The notes under the pieces were generated by a model. That model was not told the origin of the DNA. It saw only the letters and a program-made list of their open reading frames with translations, and did not search any database. The position numbers were made by a program, and so were the translations under genes. A DNA stretch of 64,000 nucleotides from an uncultured Gammaproteobacteria bacterium (GTDB lineage Bacteria > Patescibacteriota > Patescibacteriia > UBA11705 > JABHMO01), in NCBI GenBank assembly GCA_964362205.1, contig CAYIDA010000005.1, positions 1-64,000 of the forward strand, written 5' to 3'. Positions 3,704-40,019 of the stretch are shown in pieces; position 1 is the first letter of the stretch, and the number at the start of each line of letters is the position of its first letter.

Positions 3704-4294
3704 ATGGGAAGTACTTGCGATGTTTGCAAGAAAGTGCGAAAACGCGTTCATCGTAATCTTCTGACTGGTAAATACGTTTGCGCTAATTGTTATTGGATGG
3801 CTCGCTATTATAATCCCGCCTCTCATGAACGTTGTATGAAATGCGGCAAGAAAAAGCCGGTGCAGGCGCGTGATGAGTCTGGTCAGGCCATTTGTCCAAA
3901 TTGTCGGCTCAAGAATCCTGCTATTCACGAGCGATGTTTCAAATGCGGAAAAATGAGATGGGTGGAAATTCGCACAAGTTCTGGTAAAGCTATTTGCGGT
4001 CGTTGTTACAATGTATCTCGTTATCATGATCTATCCACTCACGAACGTTGTATGAAATGCGGCAAGAAGAAGCCGGTGACAAAACGTAGTAAAACCGGCG
4101 AAGCTATTTGCTCAAATTGTTACAAAAAGGCTCGCTATCACGATTCATCCACCTTTGAACGATGCTCAAAATGTGGCGAAACAAAACCGGTGGCAACACG
4201 CAACAAAAATGGCAAGGCTATCTGTCATAAATGCCGTTCACGCGATATTCGGAAGCAATGTTTAAAAATGAAGGAAAGGAAGGTTGCCACGTGA
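3704..4294 (+). CDS. Basic protein made of 5 tandem C4 zinc-ribbon units (CxxCG-x15-17-CxxC, each preceded by HERC)
   Basis: ATG at 3704 is preceded by GGAGGTGA at 3693-3700. The unit 'HERCMKCGKKKPV..R...G.AIC.NC' repeats five times. The protein is K/R-rich. Confidence 0.7.
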   Translation: MGSTCDVCKKVRKRVHRNLLTGKYVCANCYWMARYYNPASHERCMKCGKKKPVQARDESGQAICPNCRLKNPAIHERCFKCGKMRWVEIRTSSGKAICGRCYNVSRYHDLSTHERCMKCGKKKPVTKRSKTGEAICSNCYKKARYHDSSTFERCSKCGETKPVATRNKNGKAICHKCRSRDIRKQCLKMKERKVAT

Positions 4295-29563: not shown

Positions 29564-30019
29564 ATGATTGATGGCGTAAAAATCAAACAATTGAAAAAAT
29601 TCAGCGATGATCGAGGTTTTTTTGCGGAGATTATTAAGTTTGGCGAAGAAACGTTTCATGAGGTGAAACAAACGAGTTATACAGAAACTTATCCGGGCGT
29701 GATTAAAGCTTTTCATTGGCATAAAAAACAGTGGGATATCTGGTTTGTGGTAAAAGGAATGGCGCAAGTGGTGTTGTATGATTTGCGCGATGAATCAAAA
29801 ACAAAAGGCGAAACGCAAGTTGTTTACGCCGGAGAGGACAGTCCGGTCACGATCGCCATTCCGCCGGGTGTGGCTCACGGTTATCGCGTTCTTGGCAATG
29901 AAAAAGTGTGTTTGTTCTATCACACGAGCGAAGCATATGATCCGGCGAGTCCCGACGAAGAGCGGATAGCGTTTGATGATCCGAAAATTAACTTTGATTG
30001 GACAACCAAAAACAAATAA
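29564..30019 (+). CDS. rfbC: dTDP-4-dehydrorhamnose 3,5-epimerase
   Basis: RmlC cupin: FSDDRGFFAEI...HWHKKQWDIWFVVKG...IPPGVAHGYRVL. Confidence 0.9.
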   Translation: MIDGVKIKQLKKFSDDRGFFAEIIKFGEETFHEVKQTSYTETYPGVIKAFHWHKKQWDIWFVVKGMAQVVLYDLRDESKTKGETQVVYAGEDSPVTIAIPPGVAHGYRVLGNEKVCLFYHTSEAYDPASPDEERIAFDDPKINFDWTTKNK

Positions 30020-35164: not shown

Positions 35165-36211
35165 ATGAAATTACTCGTAACCGGCGGTGCCGGTTTTATC
35201 GGTTCAAATTTCATTCGGCATATTTTGAATAAATATCCGTACTATTTTGTTATTAATCTTGATAAACTGACTTACGCCGGCAATTTGGACAATTTGAAAC
35301 AGTTTGAGAGTCATCCGAATTACAAATTCGTTAAAGGAGATATTCTGAACTCAGAATTAATTGAGCATGTCGCGGCTGATGTTGATATTATTGTTCACTT
35401 TGCCGCTGAGACGCACGTTGATCGTTCGGTTCTTGATCCGTTTTCTTTTGTGAAAACCAATGTCCTCGGCACGCACGTTCTGCTTGAAGCCGCGAGAAAA
35501 TTAGGCAACAAAAGATTTCATCATATTTCCACTGACGAAGTTTTCGGTTCTTTGCCGCTTGAGGATACGCATCGTTCATTTCACGAAGAAACGCCGTATG
35601 ATCCGAAGAGTCCGTATTCATCATCAAAAGCCGCGTCCGATCATTTGGTTCGGGCGTATTATCACACTTATGGTTTGCCGATTACGATTTCCAATTGTTC
35701 AAATAATTATGGACAGTTTCAATTTCCGGAAAAAGTGATTCCGCTTTTCATTACCAATTTACTGGAAGGGAAAAAAGTGCCGCTTTACGGAGATGGAAAA
35801 AATGTACGTGATTGGATTCACGTGGAGGATCATTGCGAAGCAGTGGACGCGATTATTCACAAAGGAAAAATCGGCCATACTTATGTTGTTGGCGCTGATT
35901 GCGAGAAAACAAATTATGAATTGACCATGACGATTTTGAAACATTTGGGACATGGCGAAGAAATGATTGAATTTGTGAAAGACCGTCCGGGCCATGATCG
36001 CCGCTATGCTATGCGTTCGCACAAAATTCAGGCAGAACTCGGCTGGAAACCGAAATACAATTTTGAAGATGGTATGCGCCAAACCATTGATTGGTATGTG
36101 GCAAACAAAGATTGGTGGCAGAAAGTGAAGTCAGGGGAGTATTTGAAATATTATGACGAGTGGTACGGAAGTCGGCTACAAATTACGAATCGTACAAATG
36201 TTACAAATTGA
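35165..36211 (+). CDS. rfbB: dTDP-glucose 4,6-dehydratase
   Basis: MKLLVTGGAGFIGSNF... SDR-family with YxxxK. 348 aa. The last ~12 codons are encoded by the left arm of an F2 repeat. Confidence 0.95.
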   Translation: MKLLVTGGAGFIGSNFIRHILNKYPYYFVINLDKLTYAGNLDNLKQFESHPNYKFVKGDILNSELIEHVAADVDIIVHFAAETHVDRSVLDPFSFVKTNVLGTHVLLEAARKLGNKRFHHISTDEVFGSLPLEDTHRSFHEETPYDPKSPYSSSKAASDHLVRAYYHTYGLPITISNCSNNYGQFQFPEKVIPLFITNLLEGKKVPLYGDGKNVRDWIHVEDHCEAVDAIIHKGKIGHTYVVGADCEKTNYELTMTILKHLGHGEEMIEFVKDRPGHDRRYAMRSHKIQAELGWKPKYNFEDGMRQTIDWYVANKDWWQKVKSGEYLKYYDEWYGSRLQITNRTNVTN

Positions 36212-36347: not shown

Positions 36348-36392
36348 TTGTTTATTGACAATAAAAACCCCATGGTGGGGAAAGGAGGTTCA

Positions 36393-37640
36393 ATGAATAA
36401 TGATTTGATCGAATTTACGAAAGATAATGACCGCAATTGGTCTGAAGTGAAAAGGTTGAGAGAAATACCGATAACTGAATTGATTGAAGAAGTTCAAGTT
36501 GATTCGCGAGAAGTCGCCTTTAAACGTGGCGTTCAAGCTTTGCAAGTGATTCTCAATAATTTGCATGATGCGGGTGTGAGATTCAGAATGACTGATCCGG
36601 GGCATGGTCCAGGACACCTGGCGCGCGACGCGGCCAATGCCGTATCATTGCTTAGCAAGATTGAAGCTGATCCGAGGCACATCTTCATCGGGCTGATGGC
36701 CGGTGTTCTTCATGACGTAGGTTGCGCGCTGGTTGATCGCTATGCGGATAAGACGCGCGCGGTTCGTCACGCGGAAGTCGGAGCCATGGTCGTAAATCAT
36801 GTTCTAGGCCTCAATCATTCAGCGATAAAATTGAGTGAAGCTGAAAGGCGGTTGGTTTGCTACGCGATTGCCGCTCATACTCATTATTTGAAGTCAACCG
36901 AGGTGACTCGCGCTGACGGACAAGTTCGCACAATTGAACCGTACGTTGATCTTGATAAAGACGGAAAACCGTTTTATTTTGTTTGGTTCCCTCGCTGGAT
37001 TGATCGTTTGGATTGCGTAGGGCCGAGTTTTATCGCGAGGCACTATCTGACTTTAGTAAAACCGCACGCTGACTTTGCGGGAGATAAAGGTTTTGTTGAT
37101 ACGTCATTTGAAAAAGATATGACGCCGAAATTTCAGGAAGAATGCGGTCAGCGCACTATGCTGGATCATCTCCGAATGTTCGCTAATAGCCAGACCAATG
37201 ATTCTCCTTACGGCAAGTGGGATTATGGTTGGATGATTGAACTTCGCGATCACGCGAAAAAAAGAACAAATGAGGTTGTTCTGGCTGTGCGTGATTTAGA
37301 TAAACGTGAACAGACCTTTGGAAGCTCGGAAGCGGTCAGTGCTGATTGGCGAATAATATTAATGGAAGCGATCAGTGCTGAGTGGCACAGATTTTTAGCT
37401 GAAAAGATTGAACCGACCGGCAAAGGCGCGGCTGTGGCTGATGAACTTCAAATAATGTTTGAGAATTTGCCGCTCGAAACGCAGAAAGCGTGGTGCGTTG
37501 GATTTCGAACGGTCATGTCACAATACAAAGAGTGGAAGAATGAAATGCTTATTGAGGACGTGATGCCACAGCTTCATGCTCTTAGTCCTTTGGGATTGAT
37601 AATACCAAGAATGGGAAAAACCATTGAACTAATGTTATAG
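36393..37640 (+). CDS. HD-domain phosphohydrolase-like protein
   Basis: ATG at 36393 lies after AAAGGAGG. H...HD motifs are present: HGPGHLARD and LMAGVLHDVGCA. The ORF opens earlier, at 36348. Confidence 0.75.
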   Translation: MNNDLIEFTKDNDRNWSEVKRLREIPITELIEEVQVDSREVAFKRGVQALQVILNNLHDAGVRFRMTDPGHGPGHLARDAANAVSLLSKIEADPRHIFIGLMAGVLHDVGCALVDRYADKTRAVRHAEVGAMVVNHVLGLNHSAIKLSEAERRLVCYAIAAHTHYLKSTEVTRADGQVRTIEPYVDLDKDGKPFYFVWFPRWIDRLDCVGPSFIARHYLTLVKPHADFAGDKGFVDTSFEKDMTPKFQEECGQRTMLDHLRMFANSQTNDSPYGKWDYGWMIELRDHAKKRTNEVVLAVRDLDKREQTFGSSEAVSADWRIILMEAISAEWHRFLAEKIEPTGKGAAVADELQIMFENLPLETQKAWCVGFRTVMSQYKEWKNEMLIEDVMPQLHALSPLGLIIPRMGKTIELML

Positions 37641-37682: not shown

Positions 37683-37741
37683 ATTTGCCACTTTAAATAA
37701 TCATTGATATAATACCCGCAGATATAAAATTGAATTAAAAT

Positions 37742-38140
37742 ATGGATGCAGAAATCAAACAAGAATTTGAGAAGTTAGCAACGGGGTTAACGAAAGAAAT
37801 AGAAGATTTAACGGTTGTGATTAAGGAAAGCTTCGAAGCCGTAGATGTCAGGATGGATAGCCTGGAAAATAAAATGGATGTCAGAATGGACGGTTTGGAA
37901 AACAAAGTGAATGGCCTGGAAAATAAAATGGACGCTGGATTCTCTTCGGTTCAAACGGAATTAAGATCGATTCGAGCGGAACTAAGATCAATTGACGAAC
38001 GATTAACTGCCTTGGAAATTTTCGTGGCAAAAATCAACAAAACCGAAACTGAAGACATCGGCGTTGCTTATAAAGACTTAGAAGAAATAAAAACACGCGT
38101 TGCCAACATTGAACAGCAAATGAAACTTCAATCAGTTTAG
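37742..38140 (+). CDS. Small coiled-coil protein with MD(S/G)LENK(M/V) heptad-like repeats
   Basis: 132-aa ORF with repeats RMDSLENKMDVRMDGLENKVNGLENKMD. It is bracketed by two similar terminator hairpins. Confidence 0.55.
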   Translation: MDAEIKQEFEKLATGLTKEIEDLTVVIKESFEAVDVRMDSLENKMDVRMDGLENKVNGLENKMDAGFSSVQTELRSIRAELRSIDERLTALEIFVAKINKTETEDIGVAYKDLEEIKTRVANIEQQMKLQSV

Positions 38141-38158: not shown

Positions 38159-38186
38159 TAAGAGAGGTGTTAATGCCGCCTCTTTT
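38159..38186 (+). terminator. Rho-independent terminator (paralogue of 37655-37682)
   Basis: agaggtgttaatgccgcctct followed by ttttgattt. Confidence 0.6.
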
Positions 38187-38246
38187 TGATTTGACTTTTT
38201 TCTATCAATTGATAAAGTGTTAGCGATAAAATTAACATCAGACATT

Positions 38247-40019
38247 ATGAAGATTCTAATCATTGGCGCCAAGGGTATGCTTGGTCAGGAATTGGCCAAG
38301 GCGTTTATTGGCAATGAACTTGTTCTGTGGGACAAAGAAGAGTTGGACATTACGGATTTTGAACGAGTAAAAAAGACGATTAAAGAATTACAGCCGGAAC
38401 TCATTATTAATTCCGCAGCCTTTAACGCGGTGGATGATTGCGAACAAAATTTTGATTTGGCGAAAAAAATAAATTACGACGGTCCGGTGAATTTGGCGAA
38501 AGCGGCTAACATGGTTGGCGCTTTTTTTGTTCATTACAGCACTGATTATGTTTTTGATGGAGAAAGAAGAGATGGCTACGTGGAATATGATTTGCCGGCG
38601 CCGATTTCAAAATACGGAGAATCAAAATATTTAGGCGAAGAAGTATTGGAGCATAATGATGCGATCTATTTAATAAGAACATCGCGTTTGTTCGGTAAAC
38701 AGGCGAGCGCAATCGGCGCAAAAAAAAGTTTTGTGGAAGTGATGCTCAAGTTGGCCGATGAAAAAGAGGAGCTCGAAGTTGTGAATGAGGAAGTGAGTAA
38801 TCCGACGTATGTCGTTGATCTGGCTTATCAAACAAAATTAATTGTTGATGGAAATTATTCACCGGGAATTTATCACGCCACGAATGAAGGCGGTTGTACG
38901 TGGTATGAGTTTGCTTTGGAAATTTTCAAATTATCAGGAAAAACTGTTCGAGTTAAACCGGTTGGCGGAGAAAAGTTTCCGCGGCCGGCCAAACGTCCGA
39001 AATTTTCTTCACTGCGCAATACCAAATTACCGAAAATGAGAAGTTGGCAAGAGGCGTTGGGAGAGTTTCTTGGTGAGTTGGGACACGTGAGTTCAGTTCA
39101 ACAAGTTAGGGCTGAGTCATCTTTTGTTAACGCCTCAACGAGCGAACCCAAGAACAATTTGAACAACGTCAACAACTCCAACAATTCGAACAACTCTAAC
39201 ATCTTGAGCAAAGTTACTCTCAACGAAGTTATCTTGAAAGCGAGCAAACAAGCAACAAATAATCAAAAAATCATGAAAGGCATCATTTTGTCGGGAGGGA
39301 AGGGCACACGCTTACATCCATTAACAAAAATTACGAGTAAACAATTATTACCGGTTTTTCACAAACCAATGATCATGTTTCCGCTCGAAACCTTAATGAA
39401 GGCGGGGATTAAAGATATTTTAATAATTGTTTCGCCTGAGTACGCCGGACAATATTTGCATCTGCTCGGTTCTGGTAAAGAAATGGGCATAAAATTGACT
39501 TATGAAATTCAAGATGAACCGCGCGGTTTGCCGGAAGCATTTATTATCGGCGAAAATTTTATTGGTGATGATAATGTGACCATGATTCTCGGCGACAACA
39601 TATTTTTTGACCATGATTTCACGGACGATATTAAATCGTTTACCAGTGGCGGCCGGGTTTTTGCAGTGGAAGTGCCTGATCCGGAGAGATTTGGCGTGGT
39701 GGAATTTGATCAGAATAATCGCGTCTTATCCATTGAAGAAAAACCGCAAAAGCCGAAAAGCAATTACGCGATTCCGGGAATGTATATTTACGATCAACGT
39801 GTTTGTAATATCGCCAAGGGCATAAAACCAACTTGGCGGCCGGAAACTGATATCACTGAAGTTCACAAAGCTTATTTGAATATGAACGAACTCGATGTGC
39901 GCAAAGTTCACGGCCGCTGGCTCGATGCCGGCACGCACGAATCGTTGTTAAAAGCTTCCAACTGGATCGCGGCTATGGAGTATCAGAAGAGAATGGGGTA
40001 TAATGACATTAAAGCATAG
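38247..40019 (+). CDS. rfbD-rfbA: Bifunctional fusion: dTDP-4-dehydrorhamnose reductase (RfbD, N-terminal) + glucose-1-phosphate thymidylyltransferase (RfbA, C-terminal), joined by an Asn/Ser-rich linker
   Basis: N-terminal half MKILIIGAKGMLGQEL...YSTDYVFDG...SKYGESK matches RmlD. The linker is NNLNNVNNSNNSNNSNILS. C-terminal half MKGIILSGGKGTRLHPLT...GDNIF...LDAGTHESLL matches RmlA. It is a single frame with no stop. The ORF opens at GTG 38217; the first ATG is at 38247. Confidence 0.9.
   Translation: MKILIIGAKGMLGQELAKAFIGNELVLWDKEELDITDFERVKKTIKELQPELIINSAAFNAVDDCEQNFDLAKKINYDGPVNLAKAANMVGAFFVHYSTDYVFDGERRDGYVEYDLPAPISKYGESKYLGEEVLEHNDAIYLIRTSRLFGKQASAIGAKKSFVEVMLKLADEKEELEVVNEEVSNPTYVVDLAYQTKLIVDGNYSPGIYHATNEGGCTWYEFALEIFKLSGKTVRVKPVGGEKFPRPAKRPKFSSLRNTKLPKMRSWQEALGEFLGELGHVSSVQQVRAESSFVNASTSEPKNNLNNVNNSNNSNNSNILSKVTLNEVILKASKQATNNQKIMKGIILSGGKGTRLHPLTKITSKQLLPVFHKPMIMFPLETLMKAGIKDILIIVSPEYAGQYLHLLGSGKEMGIKLTYEIQDEPRGLPEAFIIGENFIGDDNVTMILGDNIFFDHDFTDDIKSFTSGGRVFAVEVPDPERFGVVEFDQNNRVLSIEEKPQKPKSNYAIPGMYIYDQRVCNIAKGIKPTWRPETDITEVHKAYLNMNELDVRKVHGRWLDAGTHESLLKASNWIAAMEYQKRMGYNDIKA

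Follow-up and report, generated by a model that had tools for sequence, protein, structure and literature searches.

A predicted RmlD-RmlA fusion protein joining the last and first steps of dTDP-L-rhamnose synthesis in groundwater Patescibacteria

The first of the four steps of deoxythymidine diphosphate (dTDP)-L-rhamnose synthesis belongs to RmlA, a glucose-1-phosphate thymidylyltransferase, and the fourth to RmlD, a dTDP-4-dehydrorhamnose reductase. A 64,000-nucleotide (nt) stretch of contig CAYIDA010000005.1 from a groundwater Patescibacteria genome (hereafter the window) raises the question of whether these two enzymes are here a single protein, as one plus-strand open reading frame (ORF) at 38247-40019, running from an ATG (MKILIIGAKG) at 38247 to a TAG at 40017-40019, reads as RmlD and then as RmlA. 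An initial annotation had described a single frame of 591 amino acids (aa); the frame is single and open, but the 591 codons include the stop and the protein is 590 aa long. An alternative GTG start at 38217 would make it 10 aa longer; relatives begin at the ATG instead. In our judgment the ORF probably encodes one bifunctional polypeptide, in which an RmlD of the monomeric type is joined by a disordered linker of ~65 residues to an extra-short RmlA, with both halves active and making dTDP-L-rhamnose together with RmlB and an RmlC-like protein.

The first step is to establish what the two halves are. The initial annotation had placed RmlD ahead of RmlA in one frame and suggested a domain search; Pfam models RmlD_sub_bind (PF04321) and NTP_transferase (PF00483) were both matched, and matches to NCBIfam models agree with the two assignments and their order. 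PF04321 covers aa 1-277 (E = 6e-82, 275 bits), and the NCBIfam model for rmlD, TIGR01214, is matched over positions 1-283 of 285 with 266.6 bits, above its cutoff of 224. A sequence search against PDB pairs the domain with 1VL0 (E = 2e-64), and Foldseek places its AlphaFold2 (AF2) model on the same structure with a template modelling score (TM) of 0.94 of target, a root-mean-square deviation of 1.3 Å and 45% identity. The RmlD motifs GAKGMLG, STDYVFDG and YGESK are present, as is the glycine-rich motif for reduced nicotinamide adenine dinucleotide phosphate (NADPH), G7-x-x-G10-x-x-G13. The catalytic triad of short-chain dehydrogenases/reductases, reported for SeRmlD as T104, Y128 and K132 (van der Beek 2015, PMC4832382), is kept as T99 (HYSTDY) and Y123/K127 (YGESK), which align with STDY and YG.(S/T)K of 1VL0 and 3SC6. 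Across an alignment of 48 fusions, positions G7/G10, S98, D100, Y101, Y123 and K127 are invariant or nearly so (K127 invariant; Y123, S98 and D100 at least 90% conserved).

The best structural matches of this domain are Gram-positive-type enzymes, a class shown or predicted to be monomeric (PMC4832382). With three of them, Clostridium acetobutylicum RfbD (1VL0), Bacillus anthracis RfbD (3SC6) and Streptococcus pyogenes GacA (4WPG), it has in common the fold, the triad, the GxxGxxG motif and a length of ~277 aa; these stand-alone proteins end there, whereas the C-terminus of the window RmlD runs on into the linker and a second enzyme. We infer that the first half is an NADPH-dependent dTDP-4-dehydrorhamnose reductase, acting at step 4 of the pathway.

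The second half matches PF00483 at aa 344-573 (E = 1e-60) and finds PDB 4HO0 in a sequence search (E = 6e-89). By Foldseek it is ~57%-58% identical to chains of the 4HO0 series, with a TM of ~0.8 of target for 4HO4 and 1FXO; no chain spanning both halves occurs among the Foldseek matches in PDB. The active-site motifs GGKGTRL, KQ, Q, LGDN, EEKP and WLDAGT align identically with 4HO0 and 6N0U, and in that alignment the conserved Gln is the residue that reads thymine and the LGDN Asp the one that binds Mg. In the 48 fusions, G350/G353, R355, K365, Q422, D450, E498/K499 and W558/D560 are invariant or nearly so. Relative to stand-alone short-form RmlAs (Aneurinibacillus thermoaerophilus 4HO0, Pseudomonas aeruginosa 1FXO and Escherichia coli 1H5R), the core and the sugar-binding region match at 50%-58% identity. 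This domain, then, is predicted to be a glucose-1-phosphate thymidylyltransferase, the enzyme of step 1.

Both enzymes had been called complete. That description suits RmlD, which passes its full-model cutoff, but RmlA lacks its C-terminal ~45 aa, a helical region in canonical RmlA, together with residues of the regulatory pocket. In an alignment with P. aeruginosa RmlA, whose sequence was checked against 1FXO beforehand, the window domain stops at about residue 255 of the Pseudomonas protein, ~45 residues short of where solved RmlAs end, and the Arg219-Gly220 region is shortened as well. The regulatory pocket lies at the monomer-monomer interface of the RmlA tetramer, where it is formed by Leu45, His119, Glu120, Ile256, Arg259 and Gln260 and binds allosteric inhibitors; RmlA is also reported to be inhibited by dTDP-L-rhamnose (PMC8613358). 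The stand-alone short forms have both the C-terminus and the pocket, and the window RmlA has neither: it carries L45K, G115D, H119T and E120D, and residues 256-260, including Ile256, Arg259 and Gln260, are absent. Unfused Patescibacteria RmlAs of 237-245 aa (loci L004, L005, L010, L015 and L019) are likewise without the pocket, and fusions with an RmlA of canonical length (proteins P0040, P0087 and P0084) keep its residues, so that pocket loss is a trait of the subfamily and neither a cause nor a consequence of fusion. On the same comparison we rejected the idea that the fusion compensates for the lost allosteric site.

The next step is whether the frame is intact. Three contigs that were assembled independently (L001-L003; ENA ERZ1292631, named Hain_H32_02um, and Logan SRR32696677 and SRR32696713) encode a 588-aa variant (P0001). 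At the nucleotide level their copy of the gene is 99.3% identical to that of the window and shows no linker indel; it differs only at five synonymous-type positions and in the last few codons. In 11/11 related loci, with 15-144 codons between the domains, the linker has no stop in the fused frame; the alternative frames contain stops in nearly every one of these loci, up to 13, and the window linker itself has 0 in frame versus 4 and 5 in the other two. From base composition, the random chance of an open linker frame is 0.0002-0.22 per locus. In a tblastn scan of metagenomes, which is independent of gene calling, all matches that have an RmlA part at least 78% identical to that of the window and the junction on the contig are fused. 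The initial annotation had held that a stop codon or indel in the linker would expose the fusion as an assembly artefact; the three assemblies share an identical linker and the frame is open in relatives. By all these comparisons the fused ORF is real and intact.

The linker is of a different character from the domains it joins. The Asn/Ser-rich string of the initial annotation, NNLNNVNNSNNSNNSNILS, is located at aa 303-321 (nt 39153-39209), and Tandem Repeats Finder reports an imperfect 9-nt tandem repeat, GAACAACTC in 5.6 copies, that encodes the Asn/Ser run; the repeat is missing from the closest homologues (P0002 and P0003) and is specific to the window. In the AF2 monomer model the predicted local distance difference test (pLDDT) exceeds 90 in both domains and is below 50 for residues 285-324 and 332-338, with a short helix modelled at 325-333. 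The predicted TM (pTM) is 0.53; therefore the domains have no defined mutual orientation. Given that value and the predicted disorder of the linker, we found no basis for a rigid inter-domain interface. Across clade members the linker varies from 15 to 162 aa and its sequence is unalignable. The ratio of nonsynonymous to synonymous substitution rates (dN/dS) against the closest homologues is ~0.03-0.06 in the domains and ~0.3 in the linker, and linker dN is ~8-15 times domain dN. On this measure both domains are under strong purifying selection.

Two observations on other linkers of the clade may be added. A separate member (L096, ~3830-3927, and L098) has an Asn/Leu-rich linker built of 9-nt TTGAACAAY-like repeats, LNNLNNFNNLNTLNTSNTLNNLNIN, which were found by eye and resemble the window repeat; linkers of the clade seem to have grown by slippage of such repeats more than once. 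In addition, many linkers (e.g., L091-L098 and L087) have a second in-frame ATG 4-5 codons before the RmlA Met, in peptides such as S-M-K-K-E-M-K-G and S-M-P-K-K-T-M-K-G. This codon is absent from the window and is conserved in several subclades though the linkers are otherwise unalignable; one possibility is that it is what remains of an earlier rmlA start, another that it belongs to an initiation region.

How widespread is the fusion? More than 100 of the best 120 clusters at 90% identity contain both PF04321 and PF00483. Among the best 150 of 6369 clusters at 50% identity (E ≤ 1e-30), ~7 representatives have two domains, and the whole window clade counts as one. Going by these cluster counts, the RmlD-RmlA architecture is rare relative to both families, yet not singular. 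The initial annotation had called it uncommon, which holds relative to the two families but understates the more than 100 clusters at 90% identity and the several origins described below; its suggestion that relatives be searched for the same fusion led to a clade that is fused throughout and to independent cases elsewhere. The window clade (P0001-P0038, with named members from Falkowbacteria, Kuenenbacteria, Parcubacteria or "Patescibacteria group") has the order RmlD-RmlA, the 15-162-aa linker, an RmlA of ~245-252 aa and a Met at the junction in 38/38 clusters. A Methanomicrobiales/Methanoculleus group (P0042, P0047-P0079) has the same order with a linker of ~5 aa and a junction Met, and includes an isolate-derived RefSeq protein (WP_301678182.1, Methanoculleus methanifontis). 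In a Woesearchaeota-like group (P0043-46, P0068, P0077, P0081-83), again RmlD-RmlA, the linker is ~2 aa and the junction residue Val or Ile. The remaining cases are scattered, with various junction residues: some are RmlD-RmlA with linkers of ~7-24 aa (P0040/41, P0080, P0087, P0094, P0098, P0103, P0108 and P0113), and others have the reverse order, RmlA-RmlD (P0084, P0088, P0091 and P0110).

In a neighbour-joining tree of RmlA domains, a rough tree without support values, the window clade is monophyletic, contains fused members only and is sister to unfused Patescibacteria RmlAs. The other fused groups branch apart, which implies at least ~six independent fusions, as far as such a tree can tell. 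The archaeal fusions (M. methanifontis WP_301678182.1 and the Woesearchaeota-like proteins from metagenome-assembled genomes) resemble that of the window in domain order and short RmlA, but differ in their linkers of ~2-5 aa, in the Val/Ile at the Woesearchaeota-like junction and in lying on separate branches from the window clade. Two further observations concern the search results. Six 50%-identity representatives of 537-598 aa (P0128, P0135, P0169, P0204, P0246 and P0251) match one of the two domains, so that RmlA or RmlD is evidently fused to further, other partners. Within the window clade, the fused ORF of Parcubacteria GW2011_GWC2_38_7 (P0038; L095, 763-2341, and L097) stops ~150 aa into RmlA, and tblastn similarity runs on past the ORF end to residue 587, indicating a frameshift or stop; this truncation may reflect either an error of sequencing or a copy in decay.

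The nearest unfused genomes suggest how the fusion may have arisen. In L004 (Saccharibacteria), L005 (Doudnabacteria), L006 and L019, rmlD is followed by rmlA on one strand, 24-153 nt apart, and the RmlAs of these sisters are equally short. The same gene order occurs in many other bacteria with gaps of -4 to ~150 nt. Among the matches listed from GTDB representative genomes there are unfused rmlD-then-rmlA neighbours and no member of the fused clade; we took these neighbours as the ancestral state and not for counting fusions. It is likely that an ancestor of the clade had adjacent rmlD and rmlA genes, that the rmlD stop codon was lost, and that read-through of the former intergenic spacer turned the spacer into the linker. 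Since then the linker would have drifted, and indels and repeat slippage would have altered its length, the only demand on it being an unbroken frame without stops. Such an origin would explain why the linker has no conserved sequence, why the junction keeps a Met and why linkers grow by slippage, as in the 9-nt repeat of the window.

For the bifunctional protein itself, we picture both domains as catalytically competent and flexibly tethered, working with separately encoded RmlB and RmlC-like proteins from nearby genes. The benefit would be that the two enzymes are necessarily expressed 1:1 and in the same place, in a small genome that does not group its rml genes in one operon. An RmlA oligomer core carrying RmlD arms is a plausible form of the protein. 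Channelling, in-cis regulation or the coupling of pathway entry and exit that the initial annotation proposed is speculation that takes the fusion itself as its basis.

Several points weigh against this reading. TIGR01207 (rmlA) scores 310 bits, below its cutoff of 360.65, and is matched over model positions 1-243 of 286 only. With the pocket and part of the dimer interface missing, the oligomeric state and the regulation of known RmlAs should not be assumed for the window domain. The RmlC-like protein (151 aa) reaches 67.8 bits with TIGR01221, versus a cutoff of 155.75, and also has weak matches to Polysacc_synt_C and WbuC-type cupin models; its assignment as a 3,5-epimerase, made from these models, appears weaker than the assignments of RmlA, RmlB and RmlD, and with so divergent a protein the pathway might end in a related 6-deoxyhexose. 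The fused loci were found partly through fused proteins, a bias that the tblastn metagenome scan lessens and does not remove. Finally, the Met that opens the RmlA domain is invariant and stands in a start-like context, and the fusion may not be the sole product.

This last point leads to the alternative that survives best, one that is compatible with the bifunctional fusion and would add to it without replacing it. The internal ATG (MKGIILSGG) pointed out in the initial annotation is present as Met343, and it is possible, if rather doubtful, that the gene has a dual output, the full-length fusion plus free RmlA from Met343, made by ribosomes starting there or from an internal promoter with a leaderless transcript. 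If this were true, there would be more RmlA than RmlD, and RmlA oligomers could be mixed. Met343 follows directly upon the hypervariable linker and is kept in all 38 clade clusters, and V, I, R, Y, T, L or A stand at this place in other fusion lineages; however, more than half of the RmlA-domain positions are invariant in the clade anyway, so an invariant Met says little. Its start-context score of 2.56 (true starts have a median of 3.18) ranks within the top 3.8% when 316 internal in-frame ATGs are compared. Local RNA folding at Met343 (-4.7 kcal/mol) is among the 3.5% least structured, and the upstream sequence is A-rich in all relatives; both properties, however, follow automatically from an Asn/Lys-rich linker.

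No Shine-Dalgarno (SD) motif was found in the linker ahead of Met343. In the window, leaderless or SD-independent starts are normal: an SD-like motif occurs at only 6 of the 42 gene starts (42 long ORFs), the upstream sequence is mostly AT-rich, and a -10-like hexamer lies 4-13 nt before the ATG at 7/42 gene starts versus 13/316 internal ATGs. This suggests that such initiation is frequent in the organism. The promoter-like site that ends 9 nt upstream of the internal ATG matches 10/12 consensus positions. By eye, it is not conserved in L084 or L087, its -10-like hexamer alone recurs, in L085/L089, and none of the other relatives shows the full site. We considered a conserved internal promoter and graded it as weak evidence, since the full TTGAAA-18-AATAAT site was not seen in L084 and L087. 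Selection has also kept the linker open in every member of the clade, which would be needless if separate proteins sufficed. An elaboration of dual output, a two-product device in which mixed RmlA oligomers are fitted with tethered RmlD arms in tunable, sub-stoichiometric number, strikes us as improbable. We are equally sceptical that the tethered RmlD could, in such a device, replace the lost pocket by in-cis flux control or product hand-off: the pocket is missing from unfused relatives as well and is retained in fusions of canonical length, which speaks against fusion and loss of allostery being causally linked.

Unlikely, too, is a real fusion with a different chemistry, acting on another nucleoside triphosphate or sugar-1-phosphate, leading to another 6-deoxyhexose, or with one domain regulatory, as in MAT2B. 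It would account for the sub-cutoff scores of RmlA and, by a wide margin, of the RmlC-like protein and for the missing pocket, and MAT2B, a non-catalytic RmlD homologue, is among the PDB matches. The low TIGR01207 score, however, is explained by the missing C-terminal region and not by divergence of the core, which keeps its 57%-58% identity (Foldseek) to the characterised RmlA of A. thermoaerophilus and, in the HMMER alignment with 4HO0, all nucleotide, sugar and Mg motifs, including the thymine-reading Gln. RmlD is above its equivalog cutoff with the T/Y/K triad and the glycine-rich NADPH motif intact, and rmlB passes as a dTDP-glucose 4,6-dehydratase.

That the fused frame is an artefact or a recent pseudogene-like read-through, the genuine rmlD and rmlA being separate genes with a stop or frameshift in the linker, can be dismissed as scarcely credible: a 9-nt tandem repeat is slippage-prone for assemblers and polymerases and one relative (L095/L097) is truncated within RmlA, but three independent assemblies have an identical linker, the fused frame persists across a clade in which RmlD diverges to 54% identity and linkers span 15-162 aa, and the homologous genes differ from it in length by net multiples of 3, without an internal stop in any of them.

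Table 1. Window coordinates of the fused gene, its parts and the other rml genes
Feature	Position (nt)	Strand	Evidence
Fused rmlD-linker-rmlA ORF, complete, 590 aa plus stop	38247..40019	+	ORF list, sequence
Predicted RmlD domain (dTDP-4-dehydrorhamnose reductase), aa 1-277	38247..39077	+	PF04321, TIGR01214, PDB, Foldseek, motifs
Linker, aa 278-342 (65 aa), low-complexity, predicted disordered	39078..39272	+	pLDDT, dN, frame analysis
Imperfect 9-nt tandem repeat (GAACAACTC x5.6), Asn/Ser run	39152..39201	+	Tandem Repeats Finder
Promoter-like TTGAAA-18-AATAAT, ends 9 nt before internal ATG	39234..39263	+	Consensus scan, 10/12 matches
Internal in-frame ATG, Met343 (MKGIILSGG), possible secondary start	39273..39275	+	Conservation, start context
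Predicted RmlA domain (glucose-1-phosphate thymidylyltransferase, extra-short form), aa 343-590	39273..40016	+	PF00483, TIGR01207, PDB, motifs
rmlB (dTDP-glucose 4,6-dehydratase), step 2	35165..36211	+	TIGR01181, 482 bits (above cutoff of 365); Pfam
rmlC-like cupin (dTDP-4-dehydrorhamnose 3,5-epimerase-like), step 3, divergent	29564..30019	+	PF00908, E = 9e-24; TIGR01221

The two other rml genes lie within 9 kb upstream of the fusion on the same strand (Table 1). The initial annotation had described them as scattered; it placed both correctly, and unrelated genes do intervene, namely those for a CDP-alcohol phosphatidyltransferase, a HIT protein, a minus-strand ORF, an MshEN-domain protein and two hypothetical proteins. 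Gene order is kept in L085 and L087 (74%-84% protein identity), where an S8 peptidase, the rmlC-like gene, the CDP-OH transferase, HIT, the intervening genes and rmlB are followed by an HD-like hypothetical gene, a small ORF (L085; absent from L087), rmlD-rmlA, DUF7544 and PEGA. This dispersed arrangement is therefore stable, with the fusion as the sole physical coupling among the four steps.

Two genes between rmlB and the fusion deserve mention. The first (36372-37640, plus strand) is a 422-aa ORF with no Pfam match, conserved in this position in L001 and L084-L087. It has an HD-type motif (GHLARD...LHDVG...RHAE...AAH) that aligns with the N-terminal HD domain (PF01966) fused to RmlD in P0114 (pairwise BLASTP E = 2e-5); judging from these two arrangements, a link between rmlD and an HD-domain protein seems to recur in these bacteria. 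The second (37742-38140, plus strand), directly upstream of the fusion, encodes a predicted coiled-coil protein of 132 aa with the internal repeats MDVRMDSLENK, MDVRMDGLENK and VNGLENKMD; no promoter-like site in the region is better than that of this gene, TTGCCA-17-TATAAT (37685-37713). The gene is followed at ~38161-38190 by a hairpin plus T-run, seen by eye; therefore the fusion gene probably has its own promoter.

Fusions are known in rhamnose pathways: RmlC-RmlD (~1% of hits), RmlA-RmlC and RmlA-RmlB have been reported, plant RHM combines a dehydratase with an epimerase-reductase, and HldE is a precedent for fused non-consecutive steps (bioRxiv 10.1101/854612). Like these, the window protein is of the Rosetta-stone type and joins activities of one nucleotide-sugar pathway, and its steps are non-consecutive, as in HldE and RmlA-RmlC; it differs from the known rhamnose-pathway fusions in its unusually long and variable linker. 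RmlD-RmlA is absent from the fusions given in that survey, which covered 21,964 genomes (bioRxiv 10.1101/854612), and full-text literature searches found no description or biochemical study of it. In sequence databases, in contrast, the architecture is abundant, and the exact 590-aa protein is already deposited in NCBI, ENA and Logan, on an 82-kb contig. What is new is thus an apparently undescribed fusion in the literature; the protein as a deposited sequence and the recurrence of its architecture in databases are known.

The fusion does not overturn current understanding of the pathway. Its public protein record is named only as RmlD (dTDP-4-dehydrorhamnose reductase), and of the databases JGI names both functions, NCBI and UniRef only one half; where a record names only the reductase, RmlA may be wrongly counted as missing when the pathway is reconstructed for Patescibacteria and some methanogens. 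As natural two-in-one enzymes, some with very short and others with long linkers, such fusions may also be of use for one-pot dTDP-rhamnose synthesis. Given an extra-short RmlA subfamily without the classical pocket, one may ask how these organisms control flux. Joining the first and last enzymes of dTDP-L-rhamnose synthesis is a stable solution and not an error, one that has been reached repeatedly, in bacteria and archaea, and kept across deep divergence in the window clade.

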